Notes: generated by a model not told the origin, from the letters alone. A DNA stretch of 63,416 nucleotides from Desulfobacteraceae bacterium (GCA_003599015.1 QZIK01000133.1:1-63416), one strand, 5' to 3'; shown: positions 15,335-24,087, numbered from the stretch's first letter. Translations and numbers: made by a program.

Positions 15335-15976
15335 TTAGCCCTTCAGTCTTATCTCCTGTATAAGTTTTTCCAACGAGGGGAAATAGGTTACATTTCCAAA
15401 GGGTTTTATAACGTCTGCTTCGCCCCAGCGAAATGCCTGGCCGCCTACGATAATAGACAGGCCAGGATAGTTAGATCTTACGATTTGGATCAGCTTTCCA
15501 AGGGAGGCCATGTTGAAGTATATGCTTATAGAAAGTGCCAGCATGTCAGGTTTCTTTTCCTGGATCAATAGAAGCAGATCCTCGGCTGGTGTATTTGCAC
15601 CAAGAAACCATGCGTCCCATCCATGGCTTTCCATTATATCGGCCACCATCCTGGCGCCAACCTGGTGGTATTCGTTTACCGAACATGATACTATAACTTT
15701 TTTGTCAATTTTCGACCGACCTGAAAGGATAATGGGATATACGGCAGCCAGAAGAGTCTCTGTTATGGCGGTTGCGAGGTGCTCGACTGCTACTGATATC
15801 CTGTTCTGCTCCCACAGTTCCCCTATGCTGTATAGTGCGCGCTGAAAAACCGTGTACAGGTGCTCAGGTTTTGTCCCTTTTTCAAGGAGAAGAGAGACCG
15901 TCTCCATGCATCTGGTACGATCTCCTGCCAGAAGTCCGGAAAGATACTGCAGATAAACAGCCTCATCCACCATCAC
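15335..15976 (-). CDS. stand-alone cobalamin-binding protein (B12-binding_2 helical cap plus B12-binding Rossmann domain), CarH/AerR-like
   Basis: WEQNRISVAVEH matches the Wx9EH motif. NEYHQVG matches the ExHxxG lower-ligand motif. A downstream GG (IIVGGQ) is present. No DNA-binding domain. The stop is 1 nt from the kinase ATG. Confidence 0.8.
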   Translation of the reverse strand: MMVDEAVYLQYLSGLLAGDRTRCMETVSLLLEKGTKPEHLYTVFQRALYSIGELWEQNRISVAVEHLATAITETLLAAVYPIILSGRSKIDKKVIVSCSVNEYHQVGARMVADIMESHGWDAWFLGANTPAEDLLLLIQEKKPDMLALSISIYFNMASLGKLIQIVRSNYPGLSIIVGGQAFRWGEADVIKPFGNVTYFPSLEKLIQEIRLKG

Positions 15977-16125
15977 TCACCCCTTAAGTTGAAACTTGGC
16001 CTTAAATTGGTGCGAGAGGTCTGATCCATGATTTCAACGGATTAACAGCCTTCGCGCCCTTCAAAAATAATGGATGAAAAGCACCCCATATTGAGATGAA
16101 CGTTTTCAATAAGACAGGGCGTGCA

Positions 16126-16884
16126 TCAGAAGGCAACTCCTATTTCGAAAAAGGGTCCTCCAGCCCGTCTGTTAAGGCGCAGGCTTTTTCTGTCCATCTT
16201 CACGTCTTCATGGCGGTATCCAGCGCAGAGAAAGGCCGGACCTATAACCATATACTTTAATCTTCCCAGAAGGTCATAATAATGGTCTGCGGAGCCAAGC
16301 GATATTGCCCGTAACTCGGCTTCAATGGCAAGACGCTTGACGGGCGTAAATTGTACAGCCAAAAATACCATGGGGACAGGGGTTGTGTATTCTTTGGACT
16401 CGGACACATTGTTCTGGGTCAGGACTACATCAAGATCGACCAGCTTTATATTCAGCCCAGCATCCACGTTAAGCTTTCCCAATGTTGCTGTCTTTAGAAA
16501 GGGTATTCCATAATAAAGAGCCAGATCGTATGTATTGAGCTCCAGTTTTGAAGAAAAAGGTGCATTTTTGGAAAAGGTTCTGTCTCCGAAAACAAAGTCT
16601 TCTGCCTTGGTACCTGTTCCTTCGTTTTTTTCCCTCGTAAACATAAAGTAGATGTTGGGTATCAGCAGCGGCATATCAGCCTTGATCCTGCCGAATACCG
16701 CCGTATCGTAACCCAGTTGAAGGTCTTCTTCCAGATTGAGATCAGGACCGTTATAAGACATGTCCCCCTGCTGTTTCATGTTCCAGATTCCCAAGGCTCC
16801 TTCAATGCCTATAGCCGAGGCCTCAAGGGGCAGAAAAACTGTAAGGACCACCGTAATCATCCACAACGCTCTATAGAATTTCAT
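16126..16884 (-). CDS. outer-membrane beta-barrel protein
   Basis: Signal peptide MKFYRALWMITVVLTVFLPLEASA. Alternating amphipathic strands. C-terminal aromatic beta-signal (EIGVAF). Confidence 0.6.
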   Translation of the reverse strand: MKFYRALWMITVVLTVFLPLEASAIGIEGALGIWNMKQQGDMSYNGPDLNLEEDLQLGYDTAVFGRIKADMPLLIPNIYFMFTREKNEGTGTKAEDFVFGDRTFSKNAPFSSKLELNTYDLALYYGIPFLKTATLGKLNVDAGLNIKLVDLDVVLTQNNVSESKEYTTPVPMVFLAVQFTPVKRLAIEAELRAISLGSADHYYDLLGRLKYMVIGPAFLCAGYRHEDVKMDRKSLRLNRRAGGPFFEIGVAF

Positions 16885-17034
16885 GGATATAACCTCCTTT
16901 CATATCTCAAATCTGTAAAGGCACGCTTTCAAAGAATATCTGGGTCTGGTTTAGTCTGGGTCTTAAAAATTTAGCAAACAGGGTAGACGATGATCCATTG
17001 GAATAAGAATTTTAACCTCATTCATATAAAATAT

Positions 17035-17158
17035 TATCCTTGCCTTGAAGCGTTTTCAAGGAATAATAAGAGGATAGAGAAAGTTTTGTCCAAGACCTTA
17101 TAGAAAACCATTTTATCCTCAGAAAATCATTCGTTTTGTATAGTTAAAATAGAGGATA
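17035..17158. repeat. four copies of a TATCCT/AGGATA core in alternating orientation, plus a nested 7-bp palindrome
   Basis: TATCCT at 17035-17040, GAGGATA at 17070-17076, TATCCTC at 17114-17120, GAGGATA at 17152-17158. CCTTGAA (17043-17049) pairs with TTCAAGG (17055-17061). Located in an AT-rich intergenic region. Confidence 0.6.
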
Positions 17159-17200
17159 TTTTTGCCATGGCAAGTTCAAAAGGTCCAGGCTAAAAATGCA

Positions 17201-17230
17201 TTGACAGCAGATAAGGCCCTGGAATACTTT
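17201..17230 (+). promoter_or_regulatory. candidate sigma-70 promoter of the BASS-SDR-xsc-ackA cluster
   Basis: TTGACA (17201-17206), an 18-nt spacer, then TACTTT (17225-17230). This would give a leader of about 265 nt. Confidence 0.3.
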
Positions 17231-17500
17231 GGCGAGCGGCCGGTCATTCTTGCTTTTGATGGGTCGTGTCTGAAGGTGCATTCCTTAAGAAATCAGGTTC
17301 CGTATTCAAATATCTCTTCAGCTTGTGTGGAGAGGGCTTTCCAATGTCTACAATGTAAAACCGTTTCACGATCCGACTAAGGGGAATCTTAATGATTGGC
17401 GTGATTCAAGACGGGAGGTGATTGAGGCTGGCATTTGAAGGTGTGTGAATTCCGGCAAATGCAAGGTAGCAAAAAACTAGCCCGGATAAGGAGGGGATTC

Positions 17501-18412
17501 ATGGATGCGACGGCTATAGATCAGATAAGTCTTAATTTCAATAAAGGCGGACTCCTGGCCCTGAATGCTGTAATAGGTCTGATGATGTATGGCATGGCCC
17601 TTGATATGAAATTGGAGGATTTCAAACGGGTCATTCTATCTCCAAAAGGACCGGCCATAGGCCTGGGCGCTCAATTCGTGCTTCTTCCTCTTTTTACATT
17701 TTTTTTGACCCTTGTTCTTCCTGTTACTCCGTCAATGGCTCTGGGCATGATCCTGGTTGCTGCATGTCCCGGCGGAAACCTTTCAAATGTGCTGACATAT
17801 CTTGCAAACGGCAATACCGCCCTTTCCGTAAGCATGACCGCTGTTTCAACTGCGGTCGCCATTATCATGACCCCGCTTAATCTTTCAATATGGGGGGCCA
17901 TGAATCCGGCAACCCATGATATTCTGAGAAAGGTATCGCTTGATCCGCTGGATGTTTTTCAGACAATCGTGCTTATACTGGGTATCCCCCTTGCGCTGGG
18001 AATATCAACGTCGAGGTTTTATCCCAGACTGGCCGACAGGATCAGGAAACCTTTCAAGACGATATCCGTTGTCATCTTCTGTCTTTTTGTGGCCGCAGCG
18101 CTTGGAGCCAACTGGCAAAACTTTCTCAGGGCAATAGGACTGGTAGCCTTCGGTGTTTTCATTCATAATGCCCTGGCTCTTTTCCTGGGATACAGCTCAG
18201 CCCGTCTTTTTTCCCTTGAGGAAAGAGACCGAAGGGCGGTTTCAATTGAGGTGGGCATACAGAACTCGGCCCTTGCCCTGGTATTGATATTTCAATTCTT
18301 CGGAGGTCTCGGCGGTATGGCAATAATCGCGGGGTGGTGGGGTATCTGGCATATTATATCAGGGCTCAGTGTTTCTCTTTTCTGGTCTCGAAGGCCGTCA
18401 GCTGTCAGGTAG
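17501..18412 (+). CDS. bile acid:sodium symporter (BASS/SBF) family transporter
   Basis: About 9-10 TM helices. BASS-like motifs (ACPGGNLSNV, IEVGIQNSALAL). Start at ATG 17501 with an AAGGAGGGG RBS; the ORF track starts at 17435. Confidence 0.8.
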   Translation: MDATAIDQISLNFNKGGLLALNAVIGLMMYGMALDMKLEDFKRVILSPKGPAIGLGAQFVLLPLFTFFLTLVLPVTPSMALGMILVAACPGGNLSNVLTYLANGNTALSVSMTAVSTAVAIIMTPLNLSIWGAMNPATHDILRKVSLDPLDVFQTIVLILGIPLALGISTSRFYPRLADRIRKPFKTISVVIFCLFVAAALGANWQNFLRAIGLVAFGVFIHNALALFLGYSSARLFSLEERDRRAVSIEVGIQNSALALVLIFQFFGGLGGMAIIAGWWGIWHIISGLSVSLFWSRRPSAVR

Positions 18413-18414
18413 GT

Positions 18415-19230
18415 ATGGCACATAGAAGAGACTTTAGAGGAAAGGCAGTGGTCGTAACAGGGGCTGCTTCTGGAATAGGGCTTGCCCTGGCAAGACGTTT
18501 TGGTCAGGCAGGGTCAACTATGGCTATGTTAGATATAAACAAGGATGCCTTGACTGAAGCTTCATCAAGGCTGGCAAATATGGGTATCAGAACCATGCAT
18601 GTTGAATGCGACGTATCAGATCCTCACTGCGTGGCAGGTGCCATGGAGGAGGTAATCAAAGATCTGGGCGGAGTGGATGTCCTCATCAATAACGCAGGTA
18701 TCAGTGCAAGGGCAGCCTTTGCTGCGACCAGGCTGGAGGTCTTCCACAGGGTCATGGGAGTGAATTTCTTCGGTGCCCTTTATTGCACCAAGGCATGCCT
18801 TGAAAGCCTTCTGGAAAGAAAGGGCCTGGTCATAACCATAAGCTCTCTTGCAGGTTTTTCTCCTCTTCTTGGCCGTTCTGCTTATTCGGCCAGCAAACAC
18901 GCTCTTCACGGTCTTTTTGACACTCTTCGAAGCGAGTTTAGGAGGACCGGATTAGACTTTCTGATCGTTTGTCCGGGTTTTACCGCCACCGCCATAGGCA
19001 TTTCAGCCCTTGACGGAGACGGAGCCATAACAAGACATCCTCAGTCAACTGCGGGAAGGCCTTCAAAACCTGAACATGTGGCAGATCAGATCTTCCGGGC
19101 AGCAGAGAAAAATCGCAAACTTCTTATACTTAGCAGAATAGGGCATCTTGGACGTTTCATAAATAAGATTTCTCCCAGCCTTTATGAATACCTGATGATC
19201 AAATCCATGCGTTCGGAACTGGAAAGATAG
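18415..19230 (+). CDS. short-chain dehydrogenase/reductase (classical SDR)
   Basis: TGAASGIGLA cofactor motif, NNAG, and catalytic S...YSASK. The ATG at 18415 lies 2 nt after the transporter stop. Confidence 0.85.
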   Translation: MAHRRDFRGKAVVVTGAASGIGLALARRFGQAGSTMAMLDINKDALTEASSRLANMGIRTMHVECDVSDPHCVAGAMEEVIKDLGGVDVLINNAGISARAAFAATRLEVFHRVMGVNFFGALYCTKACLESLLERKGLVITISSLAGFSPLLGRSAYSASKHALHGLFDTLRSEFRRTGLDFLIVCPGFTATAIGISALDGDGAITRHPQSTAGRPSKPEHVADQIFRAAEKNRKLLILSRIGHLGRFINKISPSLYEYLMIKSMRSELER

Positions 19231-19291
19231 AATCTTTAATGATAGTTTGCTCAAAAATATAATTATTGAACATAGTTAAAGGAGATATGCT

Positions 19292-21013
19292 ATGCCGAAA
19301 ATGACACCGTCAGAGGCACTGGTGGAAACCCTCGTTGCAGAAAAGGTGAACACTGTCTTCGGTATTGTGGGCAGTGCATACATGGATGCACTTGATCTTT
19401 TTCCCGCAGCGGGTATAAGGTTCATCCCCGTTGCCCATGAACAGGCCGCCTGCCATGCAGCGGACGGTCTAGCCAGGGTGACAGGGCGAGCGCAGGTATG
19501 TATCGCACAGAATGGGCCTGGAGCGGCTAATTTTGTATCAGCCATGGCTGCAGCCTTTTGGGCCCATTCTCCCGTTGTCGCCATAACGCCTGAAACAGGG
19601 AGCATGGGAATGGGGACAGGAGGCTTCCAGGAACTGGACCAGATGCCTATGTTTGAAAGACAGACCGTTTATCAGGTTCGGGTCAGCCGGCCCGAGCGCA
19701 TGGCCGAACTTGCAAGAAGGGCCTTTTTTATGGCCAACAATTTCAATGGACCGGCACAACTTAATATTCCAAGGGACTATTTCTACGGAACCTGCGATGA
19801 TGAGATTTATGCAACGACCATTATTCACCGAGGTCCCGGCGATGAAGAAGCTCTGATTCGTTCTGCTCAACTTCTTTCCGAAGCTTCCTATCCTGTCATA
19901 CTAGCGGGAGGAGGTGTCTGCCAGTGCGATGCGGTCTCAGAACTGGGGACGCTCGCCGATTACCTTACTGCCCCTGTTGTAAACTCCTATCTTCATAACG
20001 ACACATTCCCGTCAGATCATCCTCTTTCAGTGGGTCCTATAGGCTATTGCGGATCCAAGGCCGCCATGAGGATCATTTCGAAAGCAGATGTGGTGCTCGC
20101 TCTGGGATGCAGGCTGGGACCATTCGGAACCCTTCCCCAGTACGACATGGATTACTGGCCAAAAAACGCCAGGATAATTCAGGTTGACATCAATCCGGCA
20201 GTATTGGGATTGAGCAGGAGAGTGGAGGTAGCCTCCTGCGGAGATGCCAAGGCCTTTGCCAAGTCCCTGCTTGCTTTGCTCAAACAACTGAAGCCTGACC
20301 TCGCATGCCAAAGGGAGCGTTTATCGGAGATTGCCTTTGAAAAGAAGAGGTGGGCGGATGAAATGGTTGGATGGTCAAGTTCTACAGTTTCCCCAATGCA
20401 TCCAAGGCGCTTCCTTGCTGAACTTGCTAAGGCTGTTCCTTCCGGTTCAATCATAACAACCGATATAGGCAACAACTCCTCCATGTGTAATGCCTACTTC
20501 AAATTCAACGGCCCGCGCCAACATATCTCCGCCTTGAGCTGGGGCAACTGCGGATTTGCATACGGTGCGGCCATGGGAGCCAAGATCGGTTCACCCGAAA
20601 AGGCAGTTTTCGCCTTTCAGGGAGACGGGGCCTACGGCATAAGCGGCATTCAGGAGGTTATGACTGCGGTTCGCGAAAATATACCGGTTATCGCCATTGT
20701 GGCCAATAACTTTGAATGGGGAGCCGAGAAAAAAAATCAGATTGATTATTACAAAAGCCGTTTTGTAGGCTCCAACCTGGGGGAAAACCCTGATTATGCA
20801 AAACTGGCAGAGGATATGGGAGCCAGAGGATATCTTCTTACTGATCACAGAGAAGTGGCGGATGTGGTGCGCGATGCTGTGGCATCCCAAAGACCCAGCG
20901 TCATAAACGCAGTGATCCAGGGTGGAGAGGAGGTGCTGGCAGAGCCTTTTAGAAGGGATGCCCTTAAGATGCCTTTGCGATTACTCGAAAAATACCGACA
21001 CCTGTCAGCCTGA
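19292..21013 (+). CDS. xsc: thiamine-diphosphate enzyme, best match by eye to sulfoacetaldehyde acetyltransferase (Xsc)
   Basis: 573 aa. The N-terminus KMTPSEALVETL..FGIVGSAYMDALDLFPAAGIRF..VAHEQ, plus NGPGAANF, GTGGFQELDQMPMFE and AQLNIPRDYF, follow the Xsc pattern as I recall it rather than acetolactate synthase. ThDP motif GDGAY...NN. Acetate kinase follows directly. Confidence 0.65.
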   Translation: MPKMTPSEALVETLVAEKVNTVFGIVGSAYMDALDLFPAAGIRFIPVAHEQAACHAADGLARVTGRAQVCIAQNGPGAANFVSAMAAAFWAHSPVVAITPETGSMGMGTGGFQELDQMPMFERQTVYQVRVSRPERMAELARRAFFMANNFNGPAQLNIPRDYFYGTCDDEIYATTIIHRGPGDEEALIRSAQLLSEASYPVILAGGGVCQCDAVSELGTLADYLTAPVVNSYLHNDTFPSDHPLSVGPIGYCGSKAAMRIISKADVVLALGCRLGPFGTLPQYDMDYWPKNARIIQVDINPAVLGLSRRVEVASCGDAKAFAKSLLALLKQLKPDLACQRERLSEIAFEKKRWADEMVGWSSSTVSPMHPRRFLAELAKAVPSGSIITTDIGNNSSMCNAYFKFNGPRQHISALSWGNCGFAYGAAMGAKIGSPEKAVFAFQGDGAYGISGIQEVMTAVRENIPVIAIVANNFEWGAEKKNQIDYYKSRFVGSNLGENPDYAKLAEDMGARGYLLTDHREVADVVRDAVASQRPSVINAVIQGGEEVLAEPFRRDALKMPLRLLEKYRHLSA

Positions 21014-21054
21014 AAACTGGAACCTGGGCAGAAGAAAGGGTTTTATACCACAGC

Positions 21055-22269
21055 ATGCGGGTCCTTATATTTAACAGCGGAAGCTCGTCTCTGAAATTCA
21101 AACTGATGGATATGCCGTCGGAAATAGAGGTCTTCGGCGGCATAGTTGAGAACATAGGAGAGCCCGAGGAATGCAGGTTGGTCATGAGGCCTTCATCGAG
21201 CAGCCCGGAAGGCAAGTCCGTTGATTGCATGGATCACGGCCAGGCCCTGGATATTATTTTGAAAGAGATTGACGTGCAGGGGGCCTGCTCTGTCAGGGGT
21301 AGGGAAAAGATTGATCTTTTGGGGCATCGTCTCGTACACGGAAAAGACATTTTCAAAACCCCTGCCCTGGTTAATGAAAGAGTTCTTAAAGACATAGATG
21401 CCCTCAAGGAACTGGCGCCCCTTCACATGCCTCCTGCAATATCCGTCCTTAAGAAATGCCGGGAGAGACTGCCTGATACTCCCCAGGTGGTCTGTTTTGA
21501 TACTACCTTTTTCCAGAGCATGCCTGAAAGATCATATCGTTATGCCGTGCCCCGCCGGTGGCAGCAGGATCACGGCGTGAGGAGATACGGATTCCATGGG
21601 CTTTCCCACCAGTATGTCTCCCAAAGGGTATCGGAGCAAATGGGGATTAATCTTTCCAGTCTTAAGCTCATAAGCGCCCATCTGGGAAATGGTGCAAGCA
21701 TCACCGCTTTTGACAGGGGAGGGGTACTTGATACCTCCATGGGCTTTACTCCCCTTGAAGGTCTTATCATGGGAACGCGGAGCGGCGACATAGATCCTGC
21801 GGTCTTGCCCTACCTTAAGGATCGCACTGGAATGGATTGCCGTGCAATACTCGATATATTGAACACAGGCAGCGGTCTTATGGCCGTGGGCGGATGCGGA
21901 AGGGATCTGCGTTCAATAATGAACGAAAGAAAAAAAGGCAATTCCGATGCCGCCCTTGCCGTTGATATGTACGTTCACAGGCTTAGAAAATATATAGGAG
22001 CATACTTCTTCGCACTTTCAGGAGCGCAAGCCTTTGTTTTCACAGGGGGTGTCGGAGAGAACTCCTGGGAACTCAGAGAGATGATAATAAGCGGATGGGA
22101 TAGCCTGGGATTTGTTCTGGATAAGGAGGCAAACCGCATTGCCGTAAATGGAAGAAGCGGAATGATCTCCACTGAAACGAGCAAGGTTAAAATCTTTGTG
22201 GTCAGGACCGACGAGGAGCGTATGATTGCCCGGCTGGCATTCGGACTGACAGGCCATGATTTGAAATAA
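21055..22269 (+). CDS. ackA: acetate kinase
   Basis: MRVLIFNSGSSSLKFKL N-terminus, HRLVHGK, RYGFHGLSHQY, AHLGNGASI, TGGVGENS. Confidence 0.9.
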   Translation: MRVLIFNSGSSSLKFKLMDMPSEIEVFGGIVENIGEPEECRLVMRPSSSSPEGKSVDCMDHGQALDIILKEIDVQGACSVRGREKIDLLGHRLVHGKDIFKTPALVNERVLKDIDALKELAPLHMPPAISVLKKCRERLPDTPQVVCFDTTFFQSMPERSYRYAVPRRWQQDHGVRRYGFHGLSHQYVSQRVSEQMGINLSSLKLISAHLGNGASITAFDRGGVLDTSMGFTPLEGLIMGTRSGDIDPAVLPYLKDRTGMDCRAILDILNTGSGLMAVGGCGRDLRSIMNERKKGNSDAALAVDMYVHRLRKYIGAYFFALSGAQAFVFTGGVGENSWELREMIISGWDSLGFVLDKEANRIAVNGRSGMISTETSKVKIFVVRTDEERMIARLAFGLTGHDLK

Positions 22270-22320
22270 TCTCCGCAGTAAGGACTGTCATAATCCGGAT
22301 CCAGCTCGGGTGTACCTTCC

Positions 22321-22584
22321 CTATTTTCCCCCTTTTTCAGGGAGAATCTTAAACAGATAGCCGACAATGTCTTTAACATACCTGAATCCCTGAATGGCTT
22401 CATCAGGTATTTGAATGCCATATTGTTCTTCGAACTCAAAAACCATCTCAACGGCATCAAGGGAATCCATCCCTAGATCATCCACAAGGGAGGAGTCAAG
22501 ACTGATCTGGTCCTGCGGCACAGTCCCCTTATCCGCCAGTACGGCGATAACCTTTTCGGTAATCTCTTTCTCTGTGTAGGCCAT
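22321..22584 (-). CDS. acyl carrier protein
   Basis: 87 aa. Phosphopantetheine attachment motif LGMDSLDAVE. Start at 22584; the longer ORF-track version overlaps fabF and is unlikely. Confidence 0.85.
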   Translation of the reverse strand: MAYTEKEITEKVIAVLADKGTVPQDQISLDSSLVDDLGMDSLDAVEMVFEFEEQYGIQIPDEAIQGFRYVKDIVGYLFKILPEKGGK

Positions 22585-22604
22585 GTTGTATTGTATCCCC
22601 TTTC

Positions 22605-23861
22605 TTATATGATCTTCTTGAAAACTAGACAAGCGTTTACGCTTCCAAAGCCAAAGGCATTGGACAGAACATTCCTCAGCCTGGCATCCCTCGGCTGGTT
22701 GGGGACATAATCCAGATCGCACTCAGGATCCCTTTGATGATAGTTGACCGTGGGCGGAATGATCTGATGAAGTATTGCACAACAGCAGACTACGGCCTCT
22801 ATGGCCCCAGCTGCCCCGATGGAGTGCCCTATCATGGATTTGGTGGATGATACGGGAACCCTGTAGGCATCGCTGCCGAACAGCTTCTTTATTCCCTTTG
22901 TCTCCGCCGCATCGTTTGCCGCGGTACTCGTGCCGTGTGCGTTGATATAATCTATGTCCTTGGGGGTTATGCCCGCATCACTCAATGCAAGGGCCATCGC
23001 CTCCGCCGCATCTTCTCCGTCAGGCTGAGGCATTGCGATATGATAGGCGCCGCTGGTGAGACCGTAACCCCCTATCTCTGCGTAGATTCTAGCCCCCCGT
23101 TGAATGGCGTGGCCGAGTTCTTCGAGCAAAAGCATTGCTCCGCCCTCTCCCATGACAAAGCCGTCCCTGTCCCTGTCAAAGGGCCTGCTGGCCTCCCTTG
23201 GGGAATCGTTTCTCTTGGACAGGACATTCCTCATGGCACAGTACGCCCCGTATGTGAACTGGGTAAGCGGTGCCTCAACTCCGCCCGCCAGCATCAAATC
23301 TGCCTCTCCATGCTGTATTTTCCTTAGCGCCTCGCCGATACCGTGATTGCCCGAGGCGCATGCAGTGGAAACAACCATATTGGGCCCTCTGAGTCCTTTT
23401 TCAATGGCTATATGCGCTGCCACTGCATTAGGGGTGACCCTGGGAACACAGAGAGGATTGAAGCGGTAAGTTTCCTTCTGATAGGCCATGGCGATTTGCT
23501 CCTCATGAAAGAGCGCGCCGCCAAGTCCGGAACCCACAAGAACACCTATTCTGCTTTTATCCTCTTTTTCAAGGTCAATCCCGCTGTCTTTGAGGGCCAT
23601 CTCAGCAGAGGCGATCCCGAAATGCACAAACCGGTCAACTCGTTTTGCCTTTTTCTCCGGCATGTACAGATCCGGATTGAATCCTTTTACCTCGGCCGCG
23701 ATTCTGGAATCATAGTGGGAAGCGTCAAAGCAGGTTATTGGTCCTGCACCTGATTCTCCCTTTAGATTGGCCTTCCAGAAGGCATCCACTCCGATGCCGT
23801 TTGCTGCAACTACTCCTAATCCGGTCACAGCGACCCGTCTCCGATTAACCCCGCAAACCAT
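22605..23861 (-). CDS. fabF: beta-ketoacyl-ACP synthase II
   Basis: Active-site Cys context VSTACASG. HGTSTAANDAAE and MIGHSIGAAGAIE supply the His-His pair. C-terminal NAFGFGSVNACLVF. Confidence 0.9.
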   Translation of the reverse strand: MVCGVNRRRVAVTGLGVVAANGIGVDAFWKANLKGESGAGPITCFDASHYDSRIAAEVKGFNPDLYMPEKKAKRVDRFVHFGIASAEMALKDSGIDLEKEDKSRIGVLVGSGLGGALFHEEQIAMAYQKETYRFNPLCVPRVTPNAVAAHIAIEKGLRGPNMVVSTACASGNHGIGEALRKIQHGEADLMLAGGVEAPLTQFTYGAYCAMRNVLSKRNDSPREASRPFDRDRDGFVMGEGGAMLLLEELGHAIQRGARIYAEIGGYGLTSGAYHIAMPQPDGEDAAEAMALALSDAGITPKDIDYINAHGTSTAANDAAETKGIKKLFGSDAYRVPVSSTKSMIGHSIGAAGAIEAVVCCCAILHQIIPPTVNYHQRDPECDLDYVPNQPRDARLRNVLSNAFGFGSVNACLVFKKII

Positions 23862-24087
23862 AGATAGTCTCCTGTAATTAAAAAAGCCGTGGAAAATATA
23901 AAAAATTCGAGTTAGGCATGCCCTTTATTACTCGAAGACCTGGTTTGGGTCAAGAGATCAGTAGCCCTTGAATTTTTCCAAGAACTTTAATAAGTTGTTG
24001 TGAATGAAAAGATAATGGCTCAATTTCCGGATCTCTCATTCAGCTTTACGAAATAATTATAAATTTAAAATTCAGGAGGTTTCATCG

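Follow-up and report, generated by a model that had tools for sequence, protein, structure and literature searches.

What could a sulfate-reducing bacterium gain from an operon built around a predicted sulfoacetaldehyde acetyltransferase (Xsc), and which imported compound would feed it? The question is raised by a 63,416-nucleotide stretch of DNA from a Desulfobacteraceae bacterium (GCA_003599015.1, QZIK01000133.1:1-63416; hereafter the window), which carries four head-to-tail genes on the plus strand at 17501-22269 that encode a BASS-family permease, a classical short-chain dehydrogenase/reductase (SDR) that we call SDR1, Xsc and an acetate kinase (Ack). Algae, animals and detergents are rich in sulfonates such as isethionate and taurine, and anaerobes that breathe sulfonates yield hydrogen sulfide. 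To our knowledge, the only isethionate route demonstrated in sulfate or sulfite reducers depends on an oxygen-sensitive glycyl-radical lyase. Our analysis of the locus and its relatives suggests a different solution, in that the four genes probably constitute a self-contained route for isethionate (2-hydroxyethanesulfonate), comprising uptake, NAD+-dependent oxidation, cleavage by Xsc, ATP formation by acetate kinase and delivery of sulfite to the dissimilatory sulfite reductase (Dsr) system.

The argument begins with Xsc, for which an earlier note on this DNA, made from the sequence alone, had preferred sulfoacetaldehyde acetyltransferase over acetolactate synthase. Family models bear out this choice together with the identities that the note had given to the other three genes. 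Xsc scores 743.7 bits against the TIGR03457 equivalog model (cut-off 676.4) and 834.6 against NF005713 (cut-off 620), compared with 353.9 bits for the best acetolactate synthase model (cut-off 866), and it possesses a thiamine diphosphate (ThDP) motif, GDG...NN, at residues 444-473 and an HE motif with the activating glutamate at residue 49. No Xsc structure is among the PDB sequence matches listed for it. The protein is 71-77% identical to Xsc proteins encoded beside a class-III aminotransferase (loci L012, L033, L045 and L078) or a glutamate dehydrogenase (L041) and 68% identical to that of L069. In a quick Xsc tree, the taurine-type sequences are scattered among those linked to the gene module described below, and the window falls inside a Desulfatitalea-type clade with full support. 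Because of this high identity to the enzymes of taurine-type operons and their scattering through the tree, the substrate should be sulfoacetaldehyde, and the window very likely encodes a true sulfoacetaldehyde enzyme. The chemistry of the family is established and converts sulfoacetaldehyde and phosphate to acetyl phosphate and sulfite. The acetate kinase is equally clear at the level of family models, with 443 bits against TIGR00016 (cut-off 293.4) and 443.2 bits against PF00871 over profile positions 2-392 of 392.

SDR1 would have to supply the aldehyde. It exceeds the cut-off of an uncharacterised NCBIfam model, NF004825 (282.7 bits, cut-off 215), scores 175.8 bits against PF00106 and matches only adh_short and related SDR families, with the motifs TGAASGIG and NNAG and the catalytic residues S144, Y157 and K161. 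In 27 orthologues linked to such clusters and 32 from databases, Ser144, Tyr157 and Lys161 are invariant, as are Asp40 at the end of strand beta-2, R99 just past the NNAG motif and R154 three residues ahead of the catalytic tyrosine. It is an established rule for SDRs that an aspartate at the end of beta-2 marks use of NAD rather than NADP, and because this residue is conserved we infer that SDR1 prefers NAD, a signature that would fit a catabolic, oxidative role. R99 and R154 occupy positions that usually line SDR active sites and could hold the sulfonate group; by ungapped alignment offset, R154 falls at position 152 of R-hydroxypropyl-coenzyme M dehydrogenase (2CFC), which we take to be one of the two arginines that bind the sulfonate of coenzyme M. 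The AlphaFold model of SDR1 has a predicted local distance difference test (pLDDT) score of 84, and its substrate loops (146-150 and 193-213) are modelled with low confidence. The earlier note had likened the enzyme to IsfD, the SDR-type sulfoacetaldehyde reductase that is accompanied by the isethionate exporter IsfE in Chromohalobacter salexigens and is represented by the Klebsiella oxytoca structure 6IXJ. This likeness did not survive comparison, given the NAD-type aspartate of SDR1 and the absence of 6IXJ from both its best 60 PDB sequence matches (lowest 82.7 bits) and its best 50 Foldseek matches. Orthology to HpsO was also rejected; 8WWF does not appear at the top of either the sequence or the fold comparison.

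The permease that heads the operon scores 134.4 bits against PF01758 (cut-off 24.3) and has approximately eight hydrophobic segments, and it stays below the cut-offs of the subfamily models TIGR00841 (206.9, cut-off 326.3) and PanS NF047939 (159.1, cut-off 400). By these scores it is a member of the BASS/SBF family that lies outside the characterised subfamilies. We found no account in the literature of a BASS transporter, or of an SDR of the SDR1 family, in sulfonate catabolism.

The window belongs to a metagenome-assembled genome of 3.0 Mb that is 66% complete. The assembly encodes dsrA and aprA above cut-offs, because of which the host, a member of the Desulfobacterales from bioreactor or sludge samples, is a sulfate reducer; the earlier note had assumed a sulfite-reducing host and proposed checking for dsr genes. 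Xsc is present in a single copy, and the operon ack is the only ack found. Since a search of the assembled genome for pta found none, acetyl phosphate has no visible outlet other than this ack, in agreement with the earlier suggestion that acetate kinase would make pta unnecessary. Searches of the same assembly likewise found neither the sulfopyruvate decarboxylase ComD nor a second ThDP enzyme of the type that partners Xsc in relatives. The taurine genes that the earlier note had proposed to look for did not turn up: the assembly yielded no Xsc-linked, taurine-type aminotransferase and its sole class-III aminotransferase is hemL, alanine dehydrogenase not having been searched for. In two congener genomes that are 95-97% complete, we also found no ComD, and nothing there matches the Xsc-linked aminotransferase at better than 35-40% identity. 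The sole glycyl-radical enzyme of the host (L084, contig C110: 7914-9809, 837 aa) passes no curated cut-off, scoring best against PFL2-3 (567 bits, cut-off 678) and then against HypD and HpsG-like models, and its gene is flanked on one side by a gene resembling methylmalonyl-CoA decarboxylase alpha and on the other by one for an acyl-CoA dehydrogenase.

Taken as a pathway, the operon would work as follows. The BASS permease would import isethionate, which SDR1 would oxidize to sulfoacetaldehyde with NAD+. Xsc, by its family assignment, would convert sulfoacetaldehyde and phosphate to acetyl phosphate and sulfite, and acetate kinase, assigned in the same manner, would turn acetyl phosphate into acetate and ATP. 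Sulfite would then pass to the DsrAB system encoded elsewhere in the genome. By stoichiometry, oxidation of isethionate would provide two reducing equivalents and reduction of sulfite would consume six, such that the remainder would have to come from another donor or from oxidation of acetate. Isethionate is the predicted substrate for three reasons. Of the enzymes of the operon, in the window as in the syntenic locus L100 described below, SDR1 alone could supply sulfoacetaldehyde; no sulfonate other than isethionate is known to be converted to this aldehyde by a single alcohol dehydrogenase (PMC11423573); and the searches of the assembled genome found no other feeder.

To place the operon among its relatives, we surveyed the neighbourhoods of 80 loci, mostly from Desulfobacterales, with an Xsc of 66-81% identity and clustered the neighbouring genes. 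Two larger arrangements contain SDR1 and BASS genes. Type A clusters read TetR-SDR2-ThDP2-BASS-SDR1-Xsc with or without Ack and occur, among others, in Desulfobacula, Desulfatibacillum alkenivorans and Desulfosarcina widdelii, and type B clusters read TetR-ThDP3-BASS-extended SDR-SDR1-Xsc-Ack and occur, among others, in Desulfatitalea. Cultured strains with the larger module include Desulfatitalea alkaliphila M08but (L009), Desulfatibacillum alkenivorans DSM 16219 (L015) and Desulfosarcina widdelii PP31 (L055), and partner ThDP enzymes are encoded, for instance, at L004:1314-3071 and L015:1682-3388. Neither additional ThDP enzyme passes a curated cut-off, ThDP2 being nearest to benzaldehyde lyase (BAL) and 2-hydroxyacyl-CoA lyases (HACL) and ThDP3 to oxalyl-CoA decarboxylase (OXC) and HACS enzymes. 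Other loci with an Xsc of the same clade contain a class-III aminotransferase, several with glutamate dehydrogenase in addition, and lack SDR1 and BASS; their gene content is that of a taurine-type feeder. The gene directly before Xsc is SDR1 in the window and L100 as well as in both cluster types, and the window holds the simplest variant of a larger, widespread module that has an extra ThDP enzyme and a second dehydrogenase. The closest relatives of the window proteins are those of the Desulfatitalea type B clusters (L004/L022; BASS 86%, SDR1 67%, Xsc 80-81% and Ack 59% identity), compared with Xsc 69-70%, BASS 63% and SDR1 39-42% for the type A clusters of two congeners (L093/L094). Because the proteins are nearer to Desulfatitalea than to congeners and the Xsc tree places the window accordingly, these comparisons suggest that the cluster was gained laterally, or replaced, in the host lineage.

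The four-gene form is not confined to the window. A 47.5-kb metagenome contig (L100) carries the identical four genes in the same order and at the same chromosomal site, followed, as in the window, by an ACP-fabF pair, a Tpt1-like gene, MtaB, MnmA and a NIL ferredoxin. Amino acid identity between the two loci is 87% for BASS, 65% for SDR1, 81% for Xsc, 55% for Ack and 80% for fabF, and synonymous sites (dS) are saturated. Because L100 keeps the unit at the same site despite this saturation, purifying selection has acted on it; the four-gene unit has been kept intact over a long divergence and is no product of a recent deletion.

We then examined how the components are distributed in a phylogenetic profile of 209 genomes from the order of the host. 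Orthologues of SDR1 occur in single copy in 41 of the 209, and Xsc occurs in 16, all 16 of which also possess SDR1; wherever coordinates were compared, the two genes share a contig and lie a few kb apart. The BASS permease has single-copy orthologues of 63-85% identity in 45 of the 209 genomes, including 36 of the 41 that are SDR1-positive, and at every inspected locus BASS adjoins either SDR1 or enzymes that partner it. The BASS position is taken in some clusters by an MFS anion transporter. Together with the cluster types and L100, this profile supports the earlier proposal that Xsc receives its substrate by way of the BASS permease and the SDR; that the compound they handle is isethionate, we infer from the reasoning above.

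The module also takes forms that depart from those of the window and types A and B. Among loci L104-L115 and L146-L153, those without Xsc consist of ThDP3-BASS-extended SDR-SDR1 or SDR2-ThDP2-BASS-SDR1-TetR standing alone. L058 reads ThDP3-BASS-extended SDR-Xsc-Ack and has no SDR1, three near-complete genomes encode TetR-ThDP3-BASS-extended SDR with neither SDR1 nor Xsc, and one genome has SDR2-ThDP2-BASS alone. The only rule common to all variants seen is a transporter combined with one or more dehydrogenases and one or more ThDP enzymes, whether Xsc, ThDP2 or ThDP3. We downgraded a linear model in which a dehydrogenase and a ThDP decarboxylase would lead to sulfoacetaldehyde and on to SDR1 or Xsc, including a malolactic-like conversion of sulfolactate to isethionate, because in the three-gene variants lacking both SDR1 and Xsc such a path would end in a dead-end aldehyde. 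The minimal form, the order-wide profile and the variant series together argue that SDR1 alone can partner Xsc and that not every form can be accounted for by a strictly linear pathway.

Several observations weigh against the isethionate route as we propose it. Xsc is missing from 25 of the 41 SDR1-positive genomes, many of them more than 90% complete, meaning that SDR1 is not exclusive to Xsc, and many of the genomes that carry the module but not Xsc gave no glycyl-radical match (PF02901, E <= 1e-60). The latter result also means that replacement of Xsc by the glycyl-radical lyase IslA fails as a general explanation for these carriers, PF02901 proteins being too abundant in the order for one-by-one classification. 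Neither IsfD nor HpsO, both characterised SDRs of sulfonates, is closely related to SDR1, no substrate has been tied by experiment to the SDR1 or BASS clades, and the names of their members in databases are all generic. Oxidation of a primary alcohol with NAD+ is thermodynamically uphill and would need to be pulled by Xsc. The host genome is incomplete, so a feeder gene could lie in its unassembled part. Finally, in a 2019 tabulation of sulfate and sulfite reducers in culture, the ability to use isethionate went with IseG rather than with Xsc (PMC6453916 supplement).

These points bear on how the alternatives are to be judged. Most of the relatives' operons contain a ThDP enzyme and a second dehydrogenase, a pair that would fit the trimming of a C3 to a C2 sulfonate, and the resemblance of the ThDP enzymes to benzaldehyde lyase/HACL and OXC/HACS, together with the incompleteness of the host genome, could be read to mean that the permease imports another hydroxy-sulfonate (3-sulfolactate or 2,3-dihydroxypropanesulfonate), that the product of SDR1 is not sulfoacetaldehyde and that a decarboxylase or lyase in the unassembled third makes the substrate of Xsc. 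We consider this unlikely, as the assembly shows neither a second ThDP enzyme nor ComD and L100 has conserved the four-gene form, without a ThDP partner, at the same site; moreover, variants that keep Xsc have dropped either SDR1 (L058) or the pair of ThDP enzyme and dehydrogenase (the window and L100), a pattern that alternative feeders fit better than a linear path. SDR1 might instead work reductively with the BASS protein as an exporter, in which case taurine or another source not linked to the operon would give rise to sulfoacetaldehyde, part of which would be reduced to isethionate and excreted, in the manner of IsfD/IsfE, and the rest would go to Xsc and Ack. IsfD, the SDR known to act on this redox couple, is indeed a reductase paired with an exporter (PMC6616044), and in the 25 genomes of the order whose larger module lacks Xsc, SDR1 could end a redox-neutral conversion at isethionate. 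However, SDR1 bears an NAD-type signature as opposed to the NADPH type of IsfD, the taurine-type Xsc operons of relatives possess an aminotransferase and neither SDR1 nor BASS, no taurine aminotransferase was found in the assembled host genome, and a sulfite reducer would need electron donors rather than an extra electron sink. On balance this arrangement seems quite unlikely to us.

More distant from any sulfonate, the Xsc homologue might act on another 2-substituted aldehyde while BASS and SDR1 handle a non-sulfonated hydroxy acid. Relatives of the BASS protein carry carboxylates such as pantoate, although the PanS model is matched below its cut-off (159 bits), and the SDR1/BASS module often occurs in genomes that have neither Xsc nor a glycyl-radical enzyme. 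Against this stand the score of Xsc above a curated equivalog cut-off, its close identity to and interspersion with the enzymes of taurine-type operons, and the fact that within the order Xsc was never seen without SDR1, which together make a non-sulfonate cluster highly improbable. Finally, the closest relatives of all four proteins reside in full Desulfatitalea-type clusters and no regulator gene adjoins the operon, as would be expected if the four genes were a decaying remnant that had lost the ThDP enzyme, the second dehydrogenase and TetR and no longer made up a working pathway; with four intact frames, each with a ribosome-binding site, and the same layout and site in L100 despite saturated synonymous divergence, we find this barely credible.

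Oxidation of isethionate by SDR1 thus remains our favoured account of the operon, and it can be extended, more tentatively, to the wider module. Here SDR1 and BASS would form a new system for isethionate uptake and oxidation in sulfate reducers, from which two parallel two-step routes would act on one imported sulfonate. In one, SDR1, Xsc and Ack would yield ATP; in the other, the second dehydrogenase and a BAL/HACL/OXC-like ThDP enzyme would convert sulfoacetaldehyde or sulfopyruvate without Xsc, perhaps to acetyl-CoA. Such a division would fit every variant seen, but we regard this extension as doubtful; if true, ThDP2 and ThDP3 would be undescribed desulfonating enzymes.

The layout of the locus is summarized in the table.

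Features of the predicted isethionate operon and its leader, in window coordinates
Feature	Coordinates	Strand	Details
Putative operon leader/promoter region	16885..17500	.	616 bp intergenic, AT-rich, no regulator gene adjoining
BASS/SBF-family permease, predicted sulfonate (isethionate) transporter	17501..18412	+	303 aa; PF01758
SDR1, classical NAD-type short-chain dehydrogenase, predicted isethionate/sulfoacetaldehyde oxidoreductase	18415..19230	+	271 aa; NF004825, PF00106
Xsc, sulfoacetaldehyde acetyltransferase, ThDP-dependent	19292..21013	+	573 aa; TIGR03457, NF005713
Acetate kinase, would turn Xsc-made acetyl phosphate into acetate and ATP	21055..22269	+	404 aa; TIGR00016, PF00871

All four reading frames are intact and preceded by ribosome-binding sites. 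The BASS frame itself is open from 17435, and the ATG at 17501, with AAGGAGG before it, is the credible start. SDR1 starts 2 nt past the BASS stop codon, as the earlier note had observed, and an AAGGAG lies 8 nt upstream of the Xsc start. The best sigma-70-like match in the leader, a putative promoter, is TTGACA-16-AATACT at 17201-17228 (10/12 plus a TG), and short cores of the form ATATTATCCT/ATTTTATCCT recur in the leader, which also has two inverted repeats. A search of the whole window with Rfam at gathering thresholds gave no match, and hence no riboswitch in the leader. The leader is unusually long; the syntenic relative L100 has only approximately 120 bp at this place, and relatives carry a TetR gene that has no adjacent counterpart in the window. 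The operon is flanked upstream by a divergent outer-membrane beta-barrel gene and downstream by the convergent ACP-fabF pair, both unrelated to it.

The arrangement of the four genes is also seen in metagenome data. Logan contigs assembled from one bioreactor run cover 15500-24000, including the BASS/SDR1 junction, and are nearly identical to it, and an activated-sludge run from a separate study contains fragments that cover approximately half of this interval, most at 99% identity or more. Because the bioreactor contigs tile the region and the fragments of the second study match it, misassembly of the operon region is unlikely. Small shares of the stretch also occur in rock, subsurface and groundwater runs, and no RNA run is listed among the public runs that carry it.

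Two kinds of additional gene accompany the clusters of relatives. In Desulfatitalea-type clusters, ack is followed by a gene for a medium-chain dehydrogenase of the PIG3/quinone-oxidoreductase type (329 aa; L004:9042-10031, also L006, L013 and L022) that is not found in the window. In Desulfosarcina widdelii (L055:8455-10359) and on a metagenome contig (L099:1-574), a fusion protein of approximately 630 aa with acetyl-CoA hydrolase/transferase and GNAT acetyltransferase domains is encoded near the Xsc cluster, and is possibly tied to the handling of acetyl phosphate or acetyl-CoA.

How much of the proposed route is new is best judged against characterised systems. Desulfonispora thiosulfatigenes ferments taurine via Xsc. 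In Taurinivorans muris LT0009, taurine respiration proceeds through Tpa, Ald, Xsc and AckA, which feed DsrAB-DsrC (PMC10507020). As in these two organisms, the window route would have an oxygen-insensitive Xsc release sulfite in a strict anaerobe, with ATP made via acetate kinase, and as in T. muris the sulfite would be respired with Dsr; Xsc, Ack, dsrA and aprA are all present in the host. By contrast, we found no Tpa or Ald here, no search having been aimed at Ald, and their place is taken by a BASS permease and an NAD-type SDR; T. muris is unable to use isethionate, the substrate predicted for the window operon (PMC10507020); and the host is a member of the Desulfobacterales from bioreactor or sludge rather than a gut Desulfovibrionaceae. 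The earlier note had presented Xsc and Ack as an alternative to the glycyl-radical route, and the genes fit that description, but as a strategy the combination is not new, having been published for taurine (PMC10507020).

Isethionate dehydrogenases that feed Xsc are also on record in bacteria that do not reduce sulfate, namely IseJ, a membrane flavoenzyme found with IseKLM or IseU in Proteobacteria, and IseD, a metal-dependent alcohol dehydrogenase of Bacillus krulwichiae (PMC11423573, PMC6453916). The logic from isethionate through sulfoacetaldehyde to acetyl phosphate and sulfite would be the same, whereas the window dehydrogenase is a classical SDR (adh_short) and neither an IseJ-type flavoenzyme nor an iron/zinc alcohol dehydrogenase, the transporter belongs to the BASS family and not to TRAP or the MFS type of IseU, Ack stands in place of Pta, and the host is a strict anaerobe able to respire sulfite. 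In a survey from 2019, no IseJ homologue turned up among sulfate and sulfite reducers (PMC6453916). With IsfD/IsfE, the operon shares the encoding of an SDR, here predicted to act on the isethionate/sulfoacetaldehyde pair, beside a membrane transporter. IsfD uses NADPH and not NADH (PMC6616044), whereas SDR1 is not its near relative, has the NAD-type aspartate and is predicted to be oxidative, and the IsfD clusters lack the Xsc and Ack that the window has. The glycyl-radical route of Bilophila and Desulfovibrio (IslAB/IseGH with SarD/TauF) likewise turns a C2 sulfonate into sulfite for Dsr under anaerobic conditions, but the lyase uses a radical mechanism and produces acetaldehyde, whereas Xsc uses ThDP and phosphate and produces acetyl phosphate, and the window route includes neither a microcompartment nor an activase. 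The core chemistry, then, is known, and it is the types of transporter and dehydrogenase that are new for this predicted role.

Isethionate-based surfactants probably reach bioreactor and activated-sludge systems. For the Desulfobacterales, the operon predicts an oxygen-tolerant, ATP-yielding isethionate route. It further predicts a new candidate family of isethionate dehydrogenases, whose members are now annotated only as "SDR family oxidoreductase", and what would be the first sulfonate role for a BASS transporter. Its minimal form is also of use in telling apart the roles of the components of the larger ThDP-containing module, in that SDR1, and not the extra ThDP enzyme, suffices beside Xsc.

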